Below, piece after piece: positions 5,911-32,000 of a DNA stretch of 32,000 nucleotides. Under the pieces are notes generated by a model. It saw only the letters and a list, made by a program, of their open reading frames with translations, searched no databases and was not told the origin of the DNA. A program made the position numbers and the translations under genes. Within the stretch, counting starts at the first letter, position 1. Each line of letters starts with the position of its first letter. This stretch comes from Caldimicrobium thiodismutans. Its GTDB lineage: Bacteria; Desulfobacterota; Thermodesulfobacteria; Thermodesulfobacteriales; Thermodesulfobacteriaceae. The stretch spans positions 1,440,001 through 1,472,000 of the forward strand of contig NZ_AP014945.1 of NCBI RefSeq assembly GCF_001548275.1, written 5' to 3'.

Positions 5911-6014
5911 CTATAGGCTTCATGGATTCACATTCTTATAATAAAAAGGAGGGGTGGAAAAAGGTAAAAAGGTTGGGAGGCAGATTTGAGGCTTAAAAGA
6001 CATAGGCACATATA
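5911..6014 (+). mobile_element. Short (~100 bp), diverged copy of the MITE-like element (copy 0), little more than the two termini
   Basis: The 5' part TATAGGCTTCATGGATTCA...GGGGTGGAAAAAGGTAAAAAGG aligns with TGCATAAGTTCATATCCTTACA...GGGTGGTAAAAGGTAAAAG of copy 1. The 3' part GAGGCTTAAAAGACATAGGCACATATA matches GAGTCTCAAAAGATATGGACGCATACA at 20 of 27 positions. Confidence 0.55.
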
Positions 6015-6016
6015 TT

Positions 6017-6200
6017 TGCATAAGTTCATATCCTTACAAGAAAAAGGGTGGTAAAAGGTAAAAGTAAAAGTAGGGGAAGTTCCTTGCGTGTCTGCCCTGT
6101 GTAGGGGTTTAAAATTTTAAACCCTTGTAGGGGTTCAAGATTTTGAACCCCTACATTGATGTAAAATCCTTTCGAGTCTCAAAAGATATGGACGCATACA
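6017..6200 (+). mobile_element. MITE-like element copy 1 (184 bp) with a REP-like double-hairpin interior
   Basis: Termini are TGCATAAGTTCATATCCTTACAAG... and ...GAGTCTCAAAAGATATGGACGCATACA. These form imperfect inverted repeats (14 of 19 outer positions) and are shared with the copies at 12529, 13412, 25313 and 31273. Confidence 0.75.
6104..6154. repeat. Two adjacent GTAGGGG-footed palindromic hairpins (REP/BIME-like) inside copy 1
   Basis: GGGGTTTAAAATTTTAAACCC spans 6104-6124. GTAGGGGTTCAAGATTTTGAACCCCTAC spans 6127-6154 with a 12-bp perfect stem. Confidence 0.8.
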
Positions 6201-11376: not shown

Positions 11377-12022
11377 CCTTTTGATAATCCTCTTGTCCAA
11401 AGATTGCTGAGCCTGCAACCAGGATATCTGCACCAGCTTGCAGAACAGAAAGAGCTGTCTTTGAATTTATTCCACCGTCAACCTCAATCAGGGTAGGAAG
11501 CCCTCTTTTAATTAGGATGTTTTTTAATCTTTCAATTTTTGGTAGGCACTGGGGGATAAATTTTTGACCACCAAAGCCGGGATTAACAGTCATAATAAGC
11601 ACAAAGTCAAGGAGATCAAGGACATAATCAAGGACCTCAAGAGGGGTATGGGGATTTAGGGAGACCCCGGCAAGCTTTTCTTGTTCCTTGATTTGGGTAA
11701 TAGCACGGTGAAGATGGGGGGTAGCCTCTGCATGTATGCAGATAAGATCTGCTCCAGCTTCGGCAAAGTCTTTAATGTATCTTTCGGGATGAATTATCAT
11801 CAGATGCACATCAAAGGGAAGAGATGTATGGGGTCTAAGAGCAGAGATTACAAGGGGGCCAAAGGTAAGATTAGGGACAAAAAGGCCGTCCATAATATCA
11901 AGATGGAGAAGATGAGCGCCTGCTTTTTCAACGCTGTTGACCTCTTCTCCCAGGCAAGAAAAGTCTGCAGATAGTATTGATGGGGCAATAAGGGGTCTAT
12001 CAGAAGGAAGACTAATGGGCAT
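11348..12022 (-). CDS. rpe: Ribulose-phosphate 3-epimerase
   Basis: Motifs are [41 protein letters not shown] and EVDGGIN. Confidence 0.92.
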
Positions 12023-12528: not shown

Positions 12529-12792
12529 TGTATGCGTCCATATCTTTTGAGACTCTATATGATTTTTTCTACCTCGGTTGTAGGAAAGTGAACCTGTATT
12601 TTGTAGGGGCAAACCTATGTGTTTGCCTCCCTTATGGAAAATCTATGTGTTTGCCTGTTATGGGATCCTTTAAAGTATTGGGCAGACACATAAAGATTGG
12701 GCAGTCACTATAGGATTTGCCCCTCTTTTAACCTCTCATTTCTCACCTCTTATCACCCCTTTCTTTTTCTTGCAAGGATATGAACCTATGCA
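12529..12792 (-). mobile_element. MITE-like element copy 2 (264 bp), canonical orientation on the minus strand
   Basis: On the plus strand it reads TGTATGCGTCCATATCTTTTGAGACT...TTATCACCCCTTTCTTTTTCTTGCAAGGATATGAACCTATGCA. The interior has the hairpin GGCAAACCTATGTGTTTGCC and internal direct repeats (CTATGTGTTTGCCT twice, ATTGGGCAG(A/T)CAC twice). I found no flanking duplication. Confidence 0.7.
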
Positions 12793-12838: not shown

Positions 12839-12954
12839 TGCATGCGTTGGTTTGCATTTAGTTCTTTTAAGCTTTTTATATTTTAATAAGTTTTATAGAA
12901 TTATTATGTATGCAGAATGAGATTTAATTCAGGAATTATAACAATAGAAGAGCT

Positions 12955-13200
12955 TTATAAAAATTTGAGTAGAGCTAAAAGGACACCTAAGAAGGCAAAG
13001 CCAGCTGTTATCAACCATTGCATAAAATTCATACGCTTTTCAAGGGATTCAAATCTTGCATTCATCTCTCTTATCAAACTCTCAAATCTCTTTCCTTCAA
13101 GCTCCCTTAAAGCCTTTAATTCCTCTTCCACACGAATAATTCTCTCAAGAAGAGTTAACTCCTTCAGTCGCTCTTCATTTAACCTCAGTTTTTTCTCCAT
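12955..13200 (-). CDS. Tail-anchored coiled-coil protein (paralog P3), C-terminal ORF with only one MNARFE unit
   Basis: The product is MEKKLRLNEERLKELTLLERIIRVEEELKALRELEGKRFESLIREMNARFESLEKRMNFMQWLITAGFAFLGVLLALLKFL. Its DNA is near-identical to P1. The ATG has no SD. It is probably the downstream half of a frameshifted gene. Confidence 0.65.
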   Translation of the reverse strand: MEKKLRLNEERLKELTLLERIIRVEEELKALRELEGKRFESLIREMNARFESLEKRMNFMQWLITAGFAFLGVLLALLKFL

Positions 13201-13334
13201 AGGTTAGATAATTTTTTCTGAATTATCTCCATTATCTCAGAACTAATTTTTCCCCTGATTTCATACCCTAAGGTCCCGCTAAAAATGTCTCTTACAGCTT
13301 CTGTTAATTCCTTGGGACTAAAATTAGTATTCAT
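13185..13334 (-). CDS. 49-codon ORF homologous to the N-terminus of P1 (upstream half of the split P3 gene)
   Basis: Too short for the ORF track. My translation is MNTNFSPKELTEAVRDIFSGTLGYEIRGKISSEIMEIIQKKLSNLWRKN*, which aligns with P1 residues about 4 to 52 (NLSSEELNEAIKGVFRSSFGEEFKESISAEIWAKLEEKF...). A strong RBS GAGGGAGG lies 5 nt upstream. Confidence 0.6.
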   Translation of the reverse strand: MNTNFSPKELTEAVRDIFSGTLGYEIRGKISSEIMEIIQKKLSNLWRKN

Positions 13335-13411: not shown

Positions 13412-13618
13412 TTTATGCGTAAACTTCTTGCATTGAACCAAAATTAATCATTTCTTGAATAAAATTTTTCTAATTCCCATATCAAAGTAGAGGCAAAACA
13501 ATGTGAATGCCAATTATATATTACATAGAGCAGACACGCAAAGGGCTTCCTCTACTTTCCCCTCTCACCTTTCACCTTCTTTACCCCCATGTTTCCTCTG
13601 AGGATATGAACCTATGCA
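13412..13618 (-). mobile_element. MITE-like element copy 3 (about 207 bp, diverged), canonical orientation on the minus strand
   Basis: On the plus strand TTATGCGTAAACTTCTT matches GTATGCGTCCATATCTT at 13 of 17 positions. The interior GCAGACACGCAAAGGGCTTCCTCTACTTT matches the reverse complement of copy 1 (GCAGACACGCAAGGAACTTCCCCTACTTT). The right end reads ...CTCACCTTTCACCTTCTTTACCCCC...GAGGATATGAACCTATGCA. Confidence 0.55.
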
Positions 13619-18042: not shown

Positions 18043-18175
18043 CATAATATTTTGTTGAAATAAATCAAATTTCATAGGTCCACATTTTTACAAGATTTTA
18101 TTCCTCTATCTAAACCTAAAATTTATAATACTTTCAAAAGGCAAATTGCGACCTAGAGTAGCGGTTAGTTAGAAA

Positions 18176-18195
18176 GGGTTAAATATTTTGAACCC
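18176..18195. repeat. Orphan copy of the hairpin module GGGTTAAATATTTTGAACCC
   Basis: It is identical at 18 of 20 positions to GGGTTCAAGATTTTGAACCC inside element copy 1 (6131-6150). It is not flanked by recognisable element termini. Confidence 0.6.
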
Positions 18196-18307
18196 ATGCT
18201 ATAAATCAGTTAAAAAATTCCTGTTTCAGAAGAGATTGGGACATGGGGCAAACATTCAGGTCTGCCCAAATAGGCAGATTTAAGTCCCAAAAGAAATGGA
18301 TCCCAAA

Positions 18308-24100: not shown

Positions 24101-25249
24101 TTATTGGATAATTTCCCAGTCTCCCTTTTTCACTACCACCATTTCAAAGGAAGAGGCATCTAATCCGCAATGATCCTTTGGACTGATATTAAAAACTCCA
24201 CTTATACCTGGCCAATTTTTGATTTTATGTTCAATATAATCTCTAATTTTGGCAGAATCGGGGCCTACTTTCTTCATAGCCTCAACAACCATCATAAAGG
24301 CATCATAAGCATGGCCAGCAAAGGTTCCAGGCTCAGTTTTATATTTGGCTTCATAGGCGCGAACAAAACCTTCTAAGATCTTCTTTTGGGGATGTTTTTC
24401 AGGTAGCTTATCCCAGACTACGATCCTTCCAAGGGGAGCAATAACTCCTTCGGCTGCAGATCCTGCAAGCTGAATATTTTTCTTGCTTCCCCAGCCATGA
24501 GATTGAAAAAGGGGAATATTTAGTTTTAGGGCTTGCCAGTTTTTCACAACAATAACCTGGGTTGGTCCAACAGACCAGTTAATAATGGCCTGAGCTCCAG
24601 CTTTGTGAGCTTTGAGAAGTTGAACAGTCATATCTGAATCTTCAGGTTTATATCTTTCATCAGCTACTACCTGAATTCCAAATTTGGGTGCAAGCTCAAG
24701 AAGGGCTTTCCTTCCTTGATCTCCAAAACTATTGGTTATGGTAAGAATACCCACCTTTTGAATTCCCTTTTTTTGCATATAACGATAAATAGCTTCAACG
24801 GCACTTCTATCATACTGAGCGGTTTTAAAGACCCAGTATCTCTCATTAACAGGCTCGGTTATACCGGTTCCTGCAGCTAAGGAAATGAGAGGAATTTTGG
24901 CCTGTGAAATAATTGGAATAACTGCCATACTTTCTCCGGTTGTAGAGGGGCCAAGGATTGCAACTACTTTGTCCCGTTCAATAAGTTTTTTTGCAGAAAG
25001 CACTGCCTGGCTCTCTCCACTTTTGGAATCCTCTATAATCACTTCAAGGGGTCTTCCATTGATACCGCCTGCTTTGTTTACCTCCTCAGCCAGCAAGAGA
25101 AGGGTATTTTTTTCCTGTTCTCCAATAAAAGAAGCAGGACCTGTAACACTTAGAATAGCTCCGATTTTAATAGGCTCTTTAGAATAAGAAAAACCTATCA
25201 CACTAAAAAGAAAGGCTAAAATTAACAAAAGAACCCTCAGTCCAGCCAT
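24101..25249 (-). CDS. livK: Leu/Ile/Val-family ABC transporter substrate-binding protein
   Basis: It has a signal peptide. IKIGAILSVTGPASFIGE marks the type I periplasmic binding fold. It is the first gene of the liv operon. Confidence 0.82.
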   Translation of the reverse strand: MAGLRVLLLILAFLFSVIGFSYSKEPIKIGAILSVTGPASFIGEQEKNTLLLLAEEVNKAGGINGRPLEVIIEDSKSGESQAVLSAKKLIERDKVVAILGPSTTGESMAVIPIISQAKIPLISLAAGTGITEPVNERYWVFKTAQYDRSAVEAIYRYMQKKGIQKVGILTITNSFGDQGRKALLELAPKFGIQVVADERYKPEDSDMTVQLLKAHKAGAQAIINWSVGPTQVIVVKNWQALKLNIPLFQSHGWGSKKNIQLAGSAAEGVIAPLGRIVVWDKLPEKHPQKKILEGFVRAYEAKYKTEPGTFAGHAYDAFMMVVEAMKKVGPDSAKIRDYIEHKIKNWPGISGVFNISPKDHCGLDASSFEMVVVKKGDWEIIQ

Positions 25250-25279
25250 TTTAGACCTCCTGGTATAAAATTTTGTAAA

Positions 25280-25307
25280 GTTATAATGTAAAATCTCAAA
25301 ATGTCAA
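25280..25307 (-). promoter_or_regulatory. Putative liv operon promoter (-35 TTGACA, 16 nt, -10 TATAAC)
   Basis: The minus strand has TTGACA at 25307-25302 and TATAAC at 25285-25280. It directly abuts the element target duplication at 25308-25312. Confidence 0.5.
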
Positions 25308-25312
25308 TCTCT

Positions 25313-25564
25313 TGTGTGCGTCCAGGTCTTTTGAGACTTAAATAGTAGGGGTTTAAAATTTTATACCCCTTGAATTTTTTTTGTGGGTCTGTTGTAGTAC
25401 AGACATTCTTGTCTGTGTTTCTTTCACAGATTGGAGTGTATTTTACTTTCACAGGCAAGATTGCCTGTGTAACTTTTACAGACTTGTAAAGCCTCCCTTG
25501 TTTAGATATCTAATTCCTCTTTTACCACCCTTCCTTTTTTCTTGTAAGGATCTGAACTTATGCA
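25313..25564 (-). mobile_element. MITE-like element copy A (252 bp) with a perfect 5-bp target duplication TCTCT
   Basis: The TIRs are TGTGTGCGTCCAGGTCTTT... and ...AAGGATCTGAACTTATGCA. TCTCT occurs at 25308-25312 and 25565-25569. The interior holds four hairpins and no credible ORF. It differs from the reverse complement of 31273-31524 by 8 substitutions. Confidence 0.85.
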
Positions 25565-26934
25565 TCTCTTATAAGGATGGCAGAGAAGAATCCATCAAGG
25601 CCATGTCTATGGGGATAGCTCTTAAAAAAGGTTCCCTCTATTAAAGTTTCTCCTCTTTCAGCACAGAGTTTTTTTAAAATAGGAAGAGGGGAGTGTAGGG
25701 AGAACTCGGGATTTTTTTCAAGAAAGGTCTCAATGACCTCTTCATTTTCTTCTGGTTCGAGGCTACAGGTTGCATAAAGAAGTTTTCCTCCTTTTTTAAG
25801 ATAAGGGGCAAGCCCTGAAAGTAAATGTAATTGTTTTTTGAAATTTTCTCTGAAATCTTTTTTTCTCCTTACCCATTTGATATCTGGATGTCTACGAATG
25901 ATACCTGTTCCAGAACAGGGAGCATCAAGCAAGATTTTATCAAAGCTCCTAATTTTTAATCTTTTAAGTCCCTCTACAACATCCCCTTTAAAAACTTTGG
26001 GTTCTCTAAGGCCTAATCTTCTGAAGTTTTCTTTAAGTTTTTTCAAGCGGGATTCGTAAAGGTCAAAAGCAACTATTTCAGCCTGGTTATTTGTAAGTTC
26101 TGCTATGTGGGAGGTCTTCCCACCAACTCCGGCACAGGCATCAAGGATTAATTCCCCGGGTTTGGGATCAAGAAGAAAGCCAGCTAATTGACTGGCTGAA
26201 TCTTGGACACTAAACCATCCCAGCTCAAAACCCTTTAGCTCGGCAATCTCTCCTCTAAATTCTTTAAGCACAATCCCATAGGGGCTATATTTACAGGGCT
26301 CAGCAGAAGGAAGAACTTCCTCTTGTAGATATTTTAAAAAGTTTTCCCTTGAAACTCTTAGAGGATTTACTCTTATCACTAAGGGAGGTTTGCTGTTACT
26401 TGCCTGAAGAAGCCTTTCCAGTTCCTCAAGTCCAAAGCGCTTAAACCACTTAATTATCAACCACTCTGGAAAGGAGTATTTTATACTCATGTAATAAAGA
26501 GGATGCGCCCTTGGGGGTTCGGGAAGATTGGCTTTTTTTTCGGCAATTCTGTGCAAAATTGCATTGACAAAACCTCTTATCCAGCTTGCTCTCCTCCTCT
26601 TTAAAAGGAGCTTTAAGGTCTCCGCAAGAACTGCTCTCTCTGGGATTTTCGTAAAAAGCAATTGATAGATACCAAGCCTTAGGGCATTTTTAACCTCGGG
26701 GTCCAACTTATGAAGAGGAACTTTGGAAAATCGCTCAATCAAAAAATCCAGATAAAGGAGATGTCTCACAACACCATTTACCAATTCCCCTACTAAGGCC
26801 CTATCCCTTTTATCAGAAAGGGGATTTTGGGTAAGTAAATGGGTGAGGAGTGCATCTAAAGGGGGTTTGTCTTTTTCCCAAAAAATTAAGGCTCTAAGGG
26901 ATAGGGCTCTTGCATCCTTGAGAGAATTGGCCAT
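25558..26934 (-). CDS. rsmB: 16S rRNA (cytosine967-C5)-methyltransferase
   Basis: It has a NusB-like N-terminal domain. SAM/NOL1-NOP2-Sun motifs are DACAGVGGKT, LLDAPCSGTG and YATCSLEPEENE. I prefer the ATG at 26934, 11 nt after the uvrB stop; the track ORF starts at 26964. The last two codons, GCA and TAA, lie inside element copy A. Confidence 0.88.
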   Translation of the reverse strand: MANSLKDARALSLRALIFWEKDKPPLDALLTHLLTQNPLSDKRDRALVGELVNGVVRHLLYLDFLIERFSKVPLHKLDPEVKNALRLGIYQLLFTKIPERAVLAETLKLLLKRRRASWIRGFVNAILHRIAEKKANLPEPPRAHPLYYMSIKYSFPEWLIIKWFKRFGLEELERLLQASNSKPPLVIRVNPLRVSRENFLKYLQEEVLPSAEPCKYSPYGIVLKEFRGEIAELKGFELGWFSVQDSASQLAGFLLDPKPGELILDACAGVGGKTSHIAELTNNQAEIVAFDLYESRLKKLKENFRRLGLREPKVFKGDVVEGLKRLKIRSFDKILLDAPCSGTGIIRRHPDIKWVRRKKDFRENFKKQLHLLSGLAPYLKKGGKLLYATCSLEPEENEEVIETFLEKNPEFSLHSPLPILKKLCAERGETLIEGTFFKSYPHRHGLDGFFSAILIRDA

Positions 26935-26944
26935 ACAATTTCCT

Positions 26945-28963
26945 TTAAGCCCATTTGAGGGCAAGCTGTCTCAAGCTAAATAGTCTATCTCTAAGAATTG
27001 CTGCCCTTTCAAATTCATAGTTCTTGGCAGCTCTCTTCATCTCCTTTTCTACTCTTTCCATCTCCTCTTTTAGCTCTTCAAGGCTTGTGAAGTGTTCATC
27101 AATCTCAACAACTTTTTCAAGATCCACAAAATCAGCCTCAACCATTTTCATAAGAGGATCCTCTAAGGATTTGACAATTGTTTGAGGAGTTATCCCATGC
27201 TTTAGATTATATTCTTCCTGGATCCTTCTCCTTCTTTCAGTCTCCTGGATAGCTTTTTTCATGGAGGGAGTTAAAGTTTCCCCATAAAGAATGGCTGTGC
27301 CATTTACATTACGAGCAGCTCTTCCCATAGTCTGGATAAGACTTCTTTCTGAACGAAGGAAGCCCTCTTTATCCGCATCAAGGATAGCCACAAGGCTTAC
27401 CTCAGGTATGTCCAATCCCTCGCGCAAAAGATTGATTCCTATAAGGACATCATAGACCCCTCTTCTAAGATCCCTGATAATCCGAGCCCTTTCAAGGGTC
27501 TTTAAGTCTGAATGTAGATAACAGGCCTTGATCCCCAATTCCTTGTAGTAATCAGTAAGCTCTTCAGCCATTCTTTTAGTAAGGGTGCAGACAAGGACTC
27601 TCTCTCCTGCAGAGACCCTTTTTTTTATTTCAAAGTAAAGATCCTCTACCTGATTGGTGGAAGGTCGTACCTCTATTTTGGGATCCAGAAGTCCCGTAGG
27701 TCTTATAATCTGCTCAATAATTCTACCCTTAGCCTTTTCAACTTCATAATCTCCAGGGGTAGCTGAGACATAAATAACCTGATTAACCCGTTCTTCAAAT
27801 TCTGAAAAGGTAAGAGGGCGGTTATCAAGAGCAGAGGGGAGTCTAAAACCATACTCAACCAGAGTTTCCTTTCTTGAGCGATCTCCTCTAAACATTCCCC
27901 TTAGTTGTGGTATGGTGATGTGGCTTTCGTCAATAAAGAGGAGAAAATCATCCGGGAAGTAATCCAGAAGGGTATAGGGAGGCTCCCCGGGGTTCCTTCC
28001 ATCTAAGTATCTACTATAGTTTTCAATGCCCTTACAATAACCAGTTTCTTCAAGCATCTCAAGGTCATAGAGAGTTCTTTTTTCCAGTCTTTCTGCATAA
28101 AGGTAATGCCCCTGAGCCCTGAGATAACTAACTCTTTCTTTTAGTTCTTTTTTGATTTCTTCAATAGCTCGGAAGAGATTGGCTTCCGAGGTAACATAGT
28201 GGCTGGCTGGAAAAATTACCACACTCTGGATTTTACCCAGTACCTTTCCCCTGAAGGGGTCAATAACCTTGATATCTTCAATCTCAGCACCAAATAGGGA
28301 TAGCCTGAGGGCCTTTTTTTCTTCATGGGAAGGAAAGATCTCAATAAGATCCCCCCTTACTCTGAAGGTGCCGCGGGTGAAATCTGTCTCCACTCTTTGA
28401 TAATGCATGGTAACAAGTGCCCTTAAAAGTTCATCTCTTCTCAATTGTTGTCCCTTTTGAAGATATAGATGTTTGGAAAAATATTCATGTGGTGCTCCAA
28501 GCCCATAAATACAAGAAACACTGGCTATAACGATGACATCTCTTCGGGTGAGGACTGAGGTTGTGGCTGAATGTCTTAGCCTATCAATAAAATCATTAAT
28601 AGAGGCATCCTTTTCAATATAGGTATCAGTTGCAGGGACATAGGCTTCTGGTTGATAATAATCATAATAGGAAACGAAGTATTCCACTGCATTTTCCGGA
28701 AACAGTTTTTTAAACTCATTGTAGAGTTGTCCGGCTAAGGTTTTGTTGGGAGCGATGATAAGGGTAGGTCTTTGCACCTTAGATATAACCTGGGCCATGG
28801 TAAAGGTCTTTCCAGAGCCAGTAACTCCAAGAAGAACCTGGTGAGCAAGGCCATTCCTTACTCCTTCAACAAGCTGGGAGATGGCTTTGGGTTGATCCCC
28901 TCTGGGTTCAATCTCAGCTTTAAGTCTAAAGAGTAATTCCTTCTTAGGTATTAAGATCTCCAT
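26945..28963 (-). CDS. uvrB: Excinuclease ABC subunit B
   Basis: Motifs are GDQPKAI and [10 protein letters not shown]. Helicase motifs and a C-terminal UVR domain ([11 protein letters not shown]) are present. Confidence 0.95.
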
Positions 28964-29726
28964 AAAACCTTTTTACCTCTTCGGTATAATCCAGATTTTT
29001 TCCTTGATAAATGTATAGCGGGGCAAGGATCCTTAGGTCTTGCCTGACTCCTTTTAGGGCCTTAACAAGAAATAGTCTTGCCTCATCCCCGGGGTAGGAA
29101 TGAACAAGGCGTAACACTTTAGGTTCTAACTTGACCTCTCTTAGTAGGTCAAGAAATTCTGCAAGTCTTGAAGCCGTAAATATGGCATAGAATCTACCAC
29201 GATTTTTTAAAAGTTTAGCACAGGACTTAAGAAAGCTTTTGAGAGTAAAGGTCTCCCTTCGGGCAAGATTTTCAAGGAAGTAGGGACTTGTCCTGCCTGA
29301 ACCTGCCCTAAAATAGGGAGGATTAGCAAAGAGGACATCAAAAGAATTGGCTTTAAAGGGAGGATAAGTTATATCTCCTCGGAGAGCATAAGTTCTTTCT
29401 TCAAACTGATTGGCCTGGATACCTCTTTTTAGGGCCTCAGTGTAAAGGGGATCAATCTCAAGAAGAAAAAGCTTTGCCTGAGGAAACCTGATAAGGACAA
29501 GGAAACTTATGATACCTGTCCCTGCTCCTACCTCAAGGACTCTCTCATTTTTTTTAATCTCTAAAAAATGTGCAAGAAGCAGGGCATCTATCCCGAAACG
29601 ATAGCCTTGGCGAGGCTGAAAGACCTTTAAAGTCCCTTTATAAAAGAGGGTCTCTTCAAGAGCAGAGGTATAATTATTTTGGTAGTTCCTTTCTGTATCT
29701 TTCAAGCACATAGGAGATAGCTTCAT
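28944..29726 (-). CDS. NPPY-motif SAM-dependent methyltransferase, tRNA1(Val) m6A37 (TrmN6/YfiC)-like
   Basis: Motifs are [14 protein letters not shown], the SAM motif [12 protein letters not shown] and the catalytic FANPPYF. Confidence 0.7.
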
Positions 29727-31230
29727 TTTTAGTTTTTAATACCCCTTCAATTGCTTTTATTTCAACCTCTTCAAGAATCTCTTTGAAAAGTGGCCCGGGT
29801 TTGAATCCTATCGCAATCAGATCCTTTCCTGTTATAAGTCGTTCCCGTTTTTCAACCCTTTCCAGGTCTTGTTGAAAACTCAAGAGGTCTTTAAAAAAGG
29901 CCTTAAGTTTTTCTTCATAATCTTTTTCTTTATCCGGTCCCCGGGATGCCAGAGAGTCAGCCATTGCAACTATCCATAGAGAAAAGAGCTCCGAATGGGC
30001 CTTAAGGAGATTTCTTTTAGCTCGAGCACTCAAGGTCTTATTTTCCCACTCTTTAAGAAGATGGCACGGTCTCATGTGGTTTTTAATGAGGCTAAAAACC
30101 CAATCCGCAATCTCATTTTTAAAACGAAGGGCCTTAGCCCTTGCTATCCAGAGCTCGGCACCTTTTGATTCATGGCCATAAAAAGTTATTCTTTCCTCAG
30201 ATTCACCATAGGTATAGCCTTTGCCAAGGTCATGCAAAAAACTTCCTAATTTCACTGCGATAACAAAGTCTTCCTCATTAAATATTTCGGGAATTTCATT
30301 CAGCCCAAGATATTTTTTCGGTTCTTTAAGAATGATTTCTGCCCACTTTAGGGCCTCTAAGCTATGAGCAAAGACATCTAAGTGGTGAAAACTGGGTTGA
30401 GGAAGGCCTTTCGCTGGAATTATCTCTGGAAAGAGTATCTCAAGAACTCTATCCTCATCCATGGCCTTAAAGGCTAAATAGGCCTTGTCAGAAATTAAAA
30501 TATATTTTAGTTCCATGGAAAGTCTCTCAGGGGCTATGAGTAAAAGCTTCTGAGCCTGATTCTGAAAGTATACGCGCGTTTTTTCTTCAAGATAACCATA
30601 ATTTAAAGCATAAAAGCGATATCCCCTGAGGATTCGTAGGGGATCTTTTTTTATATTCTCTTCTCCTAAGGCCCGAATAATTCCTTTCTGGAGGTCAGAA
30701 TAACCATAAAAGGGGTCATAAAGATAGAAAGGGCCCTCAAAAAGCCCCTCCAGAGGAATAGCCATGGCATTAAAGGTAAAATCTCTTTCTCTAAGATCCT
30801 CTTCAATGGTTTCCCCACGATAAAGGGTAAGATCAAGGGTGTAGCCTCCTTTAGCCAAACGATAAATACCAAATTCTTCTGAAAGGGGAACAGGGCTGAA
30901 GGATAACACCTCAGCTAAGTATTGGTAAAGAGCGTAGATGTCATATTTTACTGCGATATCAAGGTCTGTAATTCTTTTACCCAAAAGAAAATCCCTTACC
31001 GCACCCCCAACAATAAAGAGATCTTCTCGATGGGAAAACTTTCTCAATTGAGATAATAGCCTATCCTTTTCAGGAAAGGTAAGTAATTCAATAAAAAGGG
31101 CTTTATCCTTTTCTGAAAGTTCAACCATTAAAGAATTTGGAATTTTTTTATCTAAAATATAAAACATTTTGGCTAATTTTAATAGGATTAGTCCAATTAT
31201 CTCAAAAATATTTTCCCCCTCTTTTGGCAT
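29674..31230 (-). CDS. cca: CCA-adding enzyme / poly(A) polymerase family nucleotidyltransferase with HD domain
   Basis: The head domain has GGAVRDFLLGKRITDLDIA and RDFTFNA, and the HD domain has HDLGK. I prefer the ATG at 31230, with GAGGAG 6 nt upstream; the track ORF begins at a TTG at 31254. Confidence 0.85.
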   Translation of the reverse strand: MPKEGENIFEIIGLILLKLAKMFYILDKKIPNSLMVELSEKDKALFIELLTFPEKDRLLSQLRKFSHREDLFIVGGAVRDFLLGKRITDLDIAVKYDIYALYQYLAEVLSFSPVPLSEEFGIYRLAKGGYTLDLTLYRGETIEEDLRERDFTFNAMAIPLEGLFEGPFYLYDPFYGYSDLQKGIIRALGEENIKKDPLRILRGYRFYALNYGYLEEKTRVYFQNQAQKLLLIAPERLSMELKYILISDKAYLAFKAMDEDRVLEILFPEIIPAKGLPQPSFHHLDVFAHSLEALKWAEIILKEPKKYLGLNEIPEIFNEEDFVIAVKLGSFLHDLGKGYTYGESEERITFYGHESKGAELWIARAKALRFKNEIADWVFSLIKNHMRPCHLLKEWENKTLSARAKRNLLKAHSELFSLWIVAMADSLASRGPDKEKDYEEKLKAFFKDLLSFQQDLERVEKRERLITGKDLIAIGFKPGPLFKEILEEVEIKAIEGVLKTKNEAISYVLERYRKELPK

Positions 31231-31272
31231 AGGCTCTCCTCTTTTTTTTGCCAAAAAGGCAGATACACCCCC

Positions 31273-31524
31273 TGTATAAGCTCAGATCCTTACAAGAAAA
31301 AAGGAAGGGTGATAAAAGGGGAATTAGATATCTAAACAAGGGAGGCTTTACAAGTCTATGAAAGTAACACAGGCAATCTTGCCTGTGAAAGTAAAATACA
31401 CTCCAATCTGTGAAAGAAACACAGACAAGAATGTCTGTACTACAACAGACCCACAAAAAAAATTCAAGGGGTATAAAATTTTAAACCCCTACTATTTAAG
31501 TCTCAAAAGACCTGGACGCATACA
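31273..31524 (+). mobile_element. MITE-like element copy B (252 bp) with a perfect 5-bp target duplication CCCCC
   Basis: It reads TGTATAAGCTCAGATCCTTACAAG...AAGTCTCAAAAGACCTGGACGCATACA. CCCCC occurs at 31268-31272 and 31525-31529. It is the inverted partner of copy A. Confidence 0.85.
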
Positions 31525-31564
31525 CCCCCTTTGCTTTTTTTAAAAAGATATTAAAATTTTAGTT

Positions 31565-32000
31565 ATGGGTATTTTAGCTTTGGATTTAATTAAGACATTG
31601 GAAGAGCTTGATCCTCCTGTCAGAAAAGCCATTATTAAAGTTCTGGAAAGAATTGAGCAGATAATTGAGGATACTGTTAAGCGAGAGGATTTTTTTGAGT
31701 TAAAAAATATTGTAAAAGAACTTGCTATAGCCCAGAAGAGAACTGAAGAGAGAGTTGAGGAACTTGCTATAGCCCAGAAGAGAACTGAGGAGAGAGTTGA
31801 GGAACTTGCTATAGCCCAGAAGAGAACCGAAGAGAGAGTTGAGGAACTTGCTATAGCCCAGAAGAGCCTTGCAGAAGAGGTAAAGAGGCTTGCTGAGGAG
31901 CAGATAAAACTTGCTGAGGCCCAGAAGAGAACTGAAGAGAGAGTTGAGGAACTTGCTATAGCCCAGAAGAGAACTGAGGAGAGAGTTGAAGAACTTGCTT
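31565..32000 (+). CDS. Coiled-coil repeat protein, N-terminal part (DUF3782-like; the gene runs off the window end)
   Basis: Absent from the track because it is edge-truncated. My translation is [81 protein letters not shown]... The N-terminus plus [11 protein letters not shown] repeats resemble the DUF3782 / PD-(D/E)XK-associated coiled-coil proteins common in thermophiles. The C-terminal domain is outside the window, so the family call is tentative. Confidence 0.7.
31718..32000 (+). repeat. Near-perfect 42-bp in-frame tandem repeats (14-aa unit [14 protein letters not shown])
   Basis: The unit is gaacttgctatagcccagaagagaactgaagagagagttgag. Three consecutive copies differ by one substitution each. 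A diverged stretch follows, then at least two more copies continue past the window end. Confidence 0.9.

Follow-up and report, generated by a model that had tools for sequence, protein, structure and literature searches.

A dense family of miniature transposons beside predicted promoters of Caldimicrobium thiodismutans

Introduction

The ISAjo2-type members of the IS1202 family described by Harmer et al. encode a TnsB-like transposase and act as hunters of dif sites (PMC10132070). These elements carry a TGT tip, generate a 5-bp target duplication and come to lie in one orientation, 5 bp from the site that is recognised (PMC10132070). The tip of the transposon Tn7 reads TGTGGGCG (PMC1475584). 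Here we analyse a stretch of 32,000 nucleotides from the thermodesulfobacterium Caldimicrobium thiodismutans (assembly GCF_001548275.1, contig NZ_AP014945.1, positions 1,440,001 to 1,472,000 of the forward strand; hereafter the window), in which a non-coding element of 252 bp, copy A, separates the end of rsmB from the promoter of livK. We describe its insertion at this site, the repeat family to which it belongs, and the position of the left ends of that family relative to predicted promoters, which likely reflects a choice of target.

A miniature transposon at the end of rsmB

Copy A occupies positions 25313..25564 in plus orientation, its first bases being TGTGTGCGTCC and its last GAACTTATGCA. 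The left terminal inverted repeat TGTGTGCGTCCAGGTCTTT (25313..25331, plus strand) belongs to a conserved left module that extends to ~25345 and is found by the nhmmer left-end profile with E = 1e-9; the right terminal inverted repeat AAGGATCTGAACTTATGCA (25546..25564, plus strand) closes a conserved right module that starts at ~25510. The pentamer TCTCT, which reads AGAGA on the gene strand, stands on both flanks (25308..25312 and 25565..25569) and the tips are TG...CA, exactly as a first-pass annotation made from the sequence alone had claimed. The repeat can alternatively be read as 6-7 bp (ATCTCT/T), since the adjoining bases are identical. That annotation had also counted 13 complementary pairs among the outer 19 positions, a figure that our recount lowers to 12/19 for copy A (14/19 in the members C and D introduced below); random 252-mers of the window reach 13/19 with P = 2e-4. 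The chance that a 5-mer of the window recurs 257 nt downstream is P = 0.0021, and a chance repeat was rejected as an explanation of copy A.

The boundaries are fixed independently by a second 252-bp copy in the window, copy B (31273..31524, minus strand), which is 97% identical to A and whose identity ends exactly at TG and CA. Copy B has a duplication of its own, GGGGG (CCCCC on the plus strand, at 31268-31272 and 31525-31529). Neither this second copy nor the other family members of the window had been noticed in the first-pass annotation. The interior of copy A contains hairpins and no transposase, in agreement with the earlier description: all four hairpins listed there were found, also in the predicted fold, while there is no open reading frame of note in the element and no transposase in either the element or the window. 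Among the internal structures is a palindrome, GGGGTTTAAAATTTTATACCCC, followed by T8 on the plus strand (25348..25369), a terminator-like module resembling repetitive extragenic palindromic (REP) sequences that also occurs in copy B, in member F and twice in member C. Folded either as RNA or as DNA, copy A does far better than shuffled sequences (z = -4.4 in each case). We regard the segment 25313-25564 with great confidence as a non-autonomous transposon, i.e., a transposable element of the miniature inverted-repeat kind (MITE).

The insertion can be read directly against a relative that lacks the element (L005). The orthologous RsmB of this relative (P0002, 457 aa, 84% amino acid identity) ends ...LTKD and is one residue shorter, and its rsmB end reads ...AAAGATTGACA / ...CTAAAGATTGACATTTTGAGATTTTA / ...AAAGATTGACATTTTGAGATTTTAAATTATAAC. 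The junction of the relative, ...CTC ACT AAA GAT TGA CAT TTT GAG ATT TTA AAT TAT AAC..., corresponds to the window from which 25313-25569 has been removed, ...CTT ATA AGA GAT TGA CAT TTT GAG ATT TTA CAT TAT AAC.... The empty site contains a single copy of the pentamer, AAAGA, one base of which differs from the prediction. The empty site reconstructed in the first-pass annotation was therefore correct save for that one base of the pentamer. RsmB C-termini differ among relatives, and one of them terminates at the predicted Asp.

The codon reconstruction held as well. On the minus strand, rsmB now ends GAT GCA TAA (Asp-Ala-stop; 25558..25566), in which the T, the GCA and the TAA come from the element (25558-25564 being element bases), and the ancestral end was AGA GAT TGA. 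The reconstructed ancestral stop TGA (25304..25306, minus strand), at the equivalent of which the L005 RsmB ends ...TKD-stop, lies within the -35 hexamer of the predicted livK promoter (25280..25307, minus strand). This promoter consists of the -35 hexamer TTGACA (25302-25307), a 16-nt spacer and the -10 hexamer TATAAC (25280-25285), which together match the consensus at 11/12 positions; it begins 5 bp beyond the left end of copy A and precedes the livK ATG at 25249 (minus strand). In the element-free relative, TTGACA-N16-TATAAC is already present, and the livK orthologue starts 54 bp past the rsmB stop.

Altogether, the comparison shows the insertion of copy A at the end of rsmB as it had been reconstructed. 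In mechanistic terms, a transposase supplied in trans made cuts staggered by 5 bp at AGAGA, which comprises the final Arg codon of rsmB and two bases of the Asp codon, and repair duplicated the pentamer. The right end of the element donated T-GCA-TAA, so that RsmB gained one Ala plus a new stop, and the old TGA was left within the livK -35 hexamer, with the promoter intact and 5 bp from the left end of the element.

A modular and dense repeat family

A translation of the element searched against proteins matched annotated pseudo-open reading frames of other copies, and these led to further loci. A profile search of the termini then covered the window, one flanking locus (L001) and four further loci from 99%-related assemblies (L013-L016), ~118 kb altogether. 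Outside the window, in ~85 kb of related contigs, this sample contains a further eight complete copies along with some six ends that are solo or degenerate, and the totals are 12 complete and ~8 partial sites. Element lengths range from 161 to 342 bp, apart from copy J3 with 1280 bp. Allowing for the way in which the loci were chosen, the family is abundant in C. thiodismutans, with roughly one copy in every 5-7 kb of the DNA that was sampled.

Copies share the termini TGTATGCGTCCATATCTTTTGAGACT ... CTTGTAAGGATATGAACYTATGCA, their left ends having ~30 nt in common and their right ends ~55 nt, while their hairpin-rich interiors are interchangeable and differ among the members of the window. Ten of the 12 complete copies start with TGTAT or TGTGT at the left end, and H3 starts with TGTTT. 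The core motif GTYCATATCYTT is present once per end in 11/12 copies, and in some subfamilies a less exact version of it, CTATATGATTTTTTCTAC, stands after the left repeat. The check on further copies that had been suggested for the element returned the same termini, copy B with its own GGGGG and J3 with GAAAA. Together with TCTCT at copy A, perfect 5-bp duplications thus flank three of the 12 complete copies, for which the probability of three or more by chance is P = 2e-6. Loss of the duplication in older copies, by point mutation and by recombination between copies, is expected.

Most left ends stand at a fixed distance from predicted promoters

The TTGACA that adjoins copy A, the significance of which had escaped the first reading of the sequence, turned out to be one instance of a family-wide feature. 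At 13 of 18 left ends, 5 or 6 nt separate the element from a -35-like hexamer, which is followed in the outward direction by a 16-17 nt spacer and a -10-like hexamer (P ~1e-14). TTG begins at the outward offset 5 in 9/18 left ends and at offset 6 in 4/18, with at most one occurrence at any other offset from 0 to 14, an excess for which P = 3e-15 to 7e-15. Among the 14 right ends, TTG is absent from offsets 5 and 6 and occurs at most once at any other offset. When the flanks are aligned on TTG, their consensus reads TTGa.a-N17-TAaAaT. Scored at fixed positions against TTGACA plus TATAAT, they reach a mean of 8.06/12, vs 4.93 for random positions (Mann-Whitney P = 5e-9), and the -10 hexamer taken alone gives P = 4e-7. 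Members E and F were left out of this count, being too degenerate.

In every such case a ribosome-binding site with a start codon, or a tRNA gene, comes within ~40-70 nt and is transcribed away from the element. The adjoining genes are livK, a coiled-coil gene beside B, moxR, bioY, purK, tRNA-Pro and relA, as well as nrdR, a DAHP synthase gene, serS, a gene for a PDDEXK_10 protein, a tRNA cluster and zapB. Exceptions are H1 and J1, where no promoter is visible, and K1 and C2, which adjoin another copy. Two further explanations were considered and rejected. That the element itself brings the promoter is contradicted by copies A and B, which are 97% identical and yet have unrelated flanks, and by L005, in which the promoter is present at the empty site. 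Nor is there a core site of the integrase type, as the flanking 5-mers differ among copies.

An exact spacing combined with a single orientation goes beyond what selection for harmless sites alone would produce, and we therefore infer an orientation-specific choice of target by -35 hexamers. That the promoter-adjacent, one-orientation placement reflects such a choice is likely. Under this reading, elements would always insert the same way round, so that 5 or 6 bp separate the left end from a sigma-70-type -35 hexamer downstream of it, and the machinery would read the TTGAC-like sequence directly or else a protein that occupies it.

Copy J3 and a nuclease gene

One member of the family deserves separate description. 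J3 (L015:15837-17116) is the only long element with these ends and is flanked by the perfect GAAAA duplication mentioned above. Its only gene encodes a coiled-coil DUF3782 protein with a PDDEXK_10 nuclease domain of the PD-(D/E)XK type and is interrupted by a stop in J3. This gene is found at no fewer than three loci per genome, i.e., at least three, with 93-96% amino acid identity and a variable number of heptads that changes its length in steps of 7 aa (242, 249, 256 aa). Other PDDEXK_10 loci are THC_0343, THC_0403 and THC_1627. The same 0.9-kb gene unit occurs at L016:9946-10835 between two complete copies of the family, one of which lies upstream of the promoter of the nuclease gene itself and the other upstream of a tRNA promoter. 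A BLAST search of the PDDEXK_10 protein against plasmids gave no match, and in the literature nothing was found on mobility of DUF3782/PDDEXK_10 genes. On the simplest reading, J3 is a composite that carried the nuclease gene along.

Target choice, selection and the mobilising enzyme

Could the promoter-side copies merely be the survivors of selection in a compact genome, left by an ordinary MITE with near-random targets? All copies are intergenic according to the gene tables, the intergenic share of the window amounts to only ~12% (3.9 kb), and at copy A the rsmB stop and the -35 hexamer leave no space between them, all of which would fit such a history. Selection, however, does not give the exact 5- or 6-bp spacing and the one orientation seen at 13/18 ends; several sites, such as B, C, K3 and Y, have roomy upstream regions, and the pattern is present at no right end. 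We consider near-random insertion followed by selection improbable, and target choice by -35 hexamers the better account. As for the enzyme behind it, DDE enzymes of the retroviral integrase type (IS3, IS481, Mu, Tn7) typically go with TG...CA tips and a 5-bp stagger. Because of the TGT/TG...CA tips, the 5-bp duplication and the insertion at a fixed distance and in a fixed orientation, the partner of the family is taken to be a DDE transposase of this type. Within this class, a TnsB/IS1202-like enzyme appears to be the best fit, though by itself less likely than not, and the IS3 family comes next.

A mobilising enzyme of the IS3 family (IS2 group) or of the IS481/IS21 type, whose site preference would amount to insertion beside end-like sequences, seems unlikely on balance. 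IS2-group elements do make 5-bp duplications and IS3/IS30 members can insert beside end-like sequences; the family shares the TG...CA tips and the 5-bp duplication, and copies C and B adjoin old left-end-like sequences. Against this, Tn7/IS1202 share the TGT of the left tip, the ~118 kb revealed no transposase of these types, and we know of no IS3-family element whose insertions keep a set spacing and orientation relative to a short motif. It is very unlikely that the PD-(D/E)XK nuclease of J3 (DUF3782 plus PDDEXK_10) moves the family, in spite of its being the sole open reading frame of an element with family ends and a GAAAA duplication, its presence at multiple loci of each genome, the family copies that adjoin the gene unit at both loci examined, and the lack of a classical transposase in the sample. 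To our knowledge PD-(D/E)XK nucleases cut strands and are not known to join them, and TnsA needs TnsB. The gene copy in J3 is stop-interrupted, and the gene at L016 lies between two complete copies, each simply located upstream of a promoter; J3 is therefore more simply read as a composite carrying the gene along. The DUF3782/PDDEXK_10 protein family is moreover widespread, with no reported mobility (PMC1913061). Least credible of all are REP/REPIN-like units spread by a RAYT (HUH) enzyme, or palindromic elements derived from IS200/IS605, which the hairpin-rich nature of the elements and the interior GTAG...CTAC palindrome (twice in C) might suggest. REP/RAYT and IS200/IS605 systems have neither target duplications nor terminal inverted repeats. 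Three copies with clean 5-bp duplications, one of them with a matching empty site, and the terminal repeats contradict this candidate, which was rejected; no Y1 transposase occurs in the sampled loci either. What is left after the TnsB/IS1202-like and IS3-like enzymes is a partner of another kind or one that has been lost, and the family may be orphaned.

Several observations weigh against the explanation favoured here. Seven of the 12 complete copies lack a recognisable duplication, and in two (C and J2) the duplication is 6 bp long and includes one mismatch. The terminal inverted repeat is weak, with 12-14 of 19 positions paired, and the right tips read GCA in 7/12 copies, while ACA, as in Tn7/IS1202, is found only in B and G1. 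A second internal copy of the inner repeat was not found near either end in searches with the core motif at up to 2 mismatches, unlike in IS1202 and Tn7. No autonomous partner or transposase was found in the ~118 kb made up of the window and five further loci, and there is no presence/absence polymorphism among four strains of 99-99.7% identity, hence no sign of recent activity. The promoter pattern itself was spotted post hoc, in 18 ends of one species, and the promoters are predicted, being consensus matches.

With these points taken into account, the best overall explanation, and a likely one, combines insertion of a MITE, a modular family, targeting of the promoter side, a partner of the integrase type and recombination between copies. 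A further step would be a Tn7/IS1202-type, TnsB-like transposase with a selector that reads TTGAC(A) or the bound sigma factor or RNA polymerase; we regard it as possible, though somewhat less likely than not. Were it true, every new copy would be set down with its left end leading, 5 bp upstream of a -35 hexamer, by a bacterial "promoter hunter" analogous to the dif hunters and to those eukaryotic elements that integrate at polymerase-bound promoters, and many unrelated genes would have been given the same sequence from -41 upstream.

Other members and their annotation

The remaining members or remnants in the window, at least five in number, illustrate the modular composition of the family. 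Member C (184 bp; 6017..6200, minus strand) has the same termini and another interior, and its 6-bp duplication with one mismatch reads GATATA/AATATA. The degenerate short member C2 (96 bp; 5919..6014, minus strand) lies 2 bp from C. Member D (264 bp; 12529..12792, plus strand) has the same termini and has kept no duplication. Member E (13412..13618, plus strand) has a good right end and a degenerate left end, and member F (18073..18305, minus strand) is degenerate. The inner palindrome GTAGGGGTTTAAAATTTTAAACCCCTAC, with the GTAG head that is typical of REP sequences, occurs at 6100-6155 (as a doublet in C), 18176-18195, 25348-25369 and 31469-31488; this GTAG...CTAC palindrome may represent a module of its own that is nested within the family.

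The longest open frames within the elements measure 65-69 aa and have no family match. Seven "hypothetical proteins" annotated in public databases (P0121-P0127, namely THC_1470 of C. thiodismutans and six others) are translations of element copies that run into the flank, and THC_1470 is identical to the window open reading frame 25237..25458 (minus strand); these are almost certainly spurious genes. Rfam 15 gave no match in the window at the gathering score, and, with the threshold relaxed to E <= 1, hits around the element only at chance level (E ~0.6 or higher). Plasmid BLAST with the element and scans of viral contigs with left- and right-end patterns gave no match. The left-end pattern TGCGTCCANNTCTTTTGAGAC had three chance matches in the genome and metagenome contig collections, all without the TGTA tip, the source genome evidently lying outside these collections. 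Judged by its sequence, with no Rfam, plasmid or phage match, the family is new. In the literature we found neither a description of MITEs in Thermodesulfobacteria nor one of a MITE that targets the -35 box. The family was not found in 12.6 kb of a 78%-identical relative (L006). In the corresponding intergenic regions of that relative (L006:5200-5600 and 11380-11560) there is a different hairpin repeat (GGTAGCCGCAAGACCTTAAGCCTGCGAAG / CTAAAGGTTGCGGCTACC).

Possible rearrangements and neighbouring genes

In the assembly GCA_017880035.1 (L003:3730-9937), the segment corresponding to window 25313..31524, a 6.2-kb region that contains rsmB, uvrB, a methyltransferase gene and cca, is inverted. The breakpoints are located inside copies A and B, and the hybrid flanks read GGGGG-element-TCTCT and CCCCC-element-AGAGA, which is the product expected of recombination between inverted copies. 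This comparison also shows that the window carries the original arrangement. The inverted order might instead be a metagenome misassembly across the 252-bp inverted repeat. Copies of the family could serve as portable homology, with the inverted copies A and B bounding a 6.2-kb inversion (or an assembly artefact). In the same assembly uvrB is split into two open reading frames (160 + 486 aa; L003:5361-7378), whereas both the window and the JGI contig have it intact, with 672 aa; the split is probably a sequencing or assembly error. Public contigs start or end inside copies of the element (L004 at position 1; L001 at positions 1-173), and the family therefore fragments short-read assemblies.

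The right end of copy B is only ~18-42 nt upstream of the cca start (window 31230-31272), and the original cca promoter must therefore have been displaced by 257 bp. Reading of the sequence revealed no convincing hexamers of an outward promoter for cca in the right end of copy B. On the other side of copy B, the adjacent gene (31565-32000, continued in L002:2751-3686 and L003:2649-3689) encodes a coiled-coil protein, the repeats of which vary by strain (311 vs 346 aa). Its C-terminal region is nuclease-like (GEAK motif) and has no Pfam match. Between D and E, positions 12953-13218 hold an inverted partial duplicate of another coiled-coil gene (512-1198), with 82-86% identity when compared with 632-1200, which points to an earlier rearrangement of this intergenic region rich in repeats.

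Significance

As a single MITE, copy A is ordinary, if unusually clean: its empty site matches, it has a twin, and the present stop codon of rsmB came with the element. A transposon that settles at a fixed distance and in a fixed orientation from -35 boxes would represent a new kind of target choice in bacteria, and targeting of the -35 side would account for the persistence of so dense a repeat family in a 1.8-Mb genome without the killing of genes. An identical upstream sequence planted at many promoters could, in addition, evolve into shared regulation. The copies also bear on genome stability and assembly, as seen in the inversion between A and B, the contig breaks inside the element and the small "hypothetical proteins" that have been annotated from it.

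Comparison with known systems

Among classical MITEs, such as Correia/NEMIS of Neisseria, RUP, ERIC and MITEAba12, we find the same small, non-coding, structured, multi-copy and intergenic elements with terminal inverted repeats and target duplication, which can likewise alter gene ends and act as recombination substrates. They differ in using short sequence targets (e.g., TA), with no reported fixed spacing or orientation relative to a -35 box. As is generally known, the IS2 group of the IS3 family shares the TG...CA tips and the 5-bp duplication; no orfAB transposase was found in the sampled loci, though, and IS3 members are not known to choose targets at a fixed distance in a comparable way.

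The likeness to Tn7 extends to the TGT tip (TGTGTGCG here vs TGTGGGCG in Tn7), the 5-bp duplication and the insertion in a set orientation, a fixed distance away from a sequence that is recognised. Tn7, however, depends on TnsABC together with a target selector, carries several TnsB sites at each end and uses one or few attachment sites per genome, whereas the family described here has very many sites and one repeat per end. No tnsABC or tniQ genes are present in the gene tables of the sampled loci.

Of the known systems, the dif-hunting IS1202/ISAjo2 group comes closest. With it the family shares the left tip TGT, imperfect terminal inverted repeats of ~20-26 bp, a short duplication (5 bp and occasionally 6 here, 3-5 bp in the ISAjo2 group) and a single orientation in which one end lies exactly 5 bp from a short recognised site. 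Besides the mostly GCA right tips, the single inner repeat per end and the TnsB-like transposase, which was not found in the sampled loci, the differences concern the nature of the elements, which are non-coding and 161-342 bp long in the present family, and that of the site itself, which is the XerC arm of dif for the ISAjo2 group and a promoter -35-like hexamer here.

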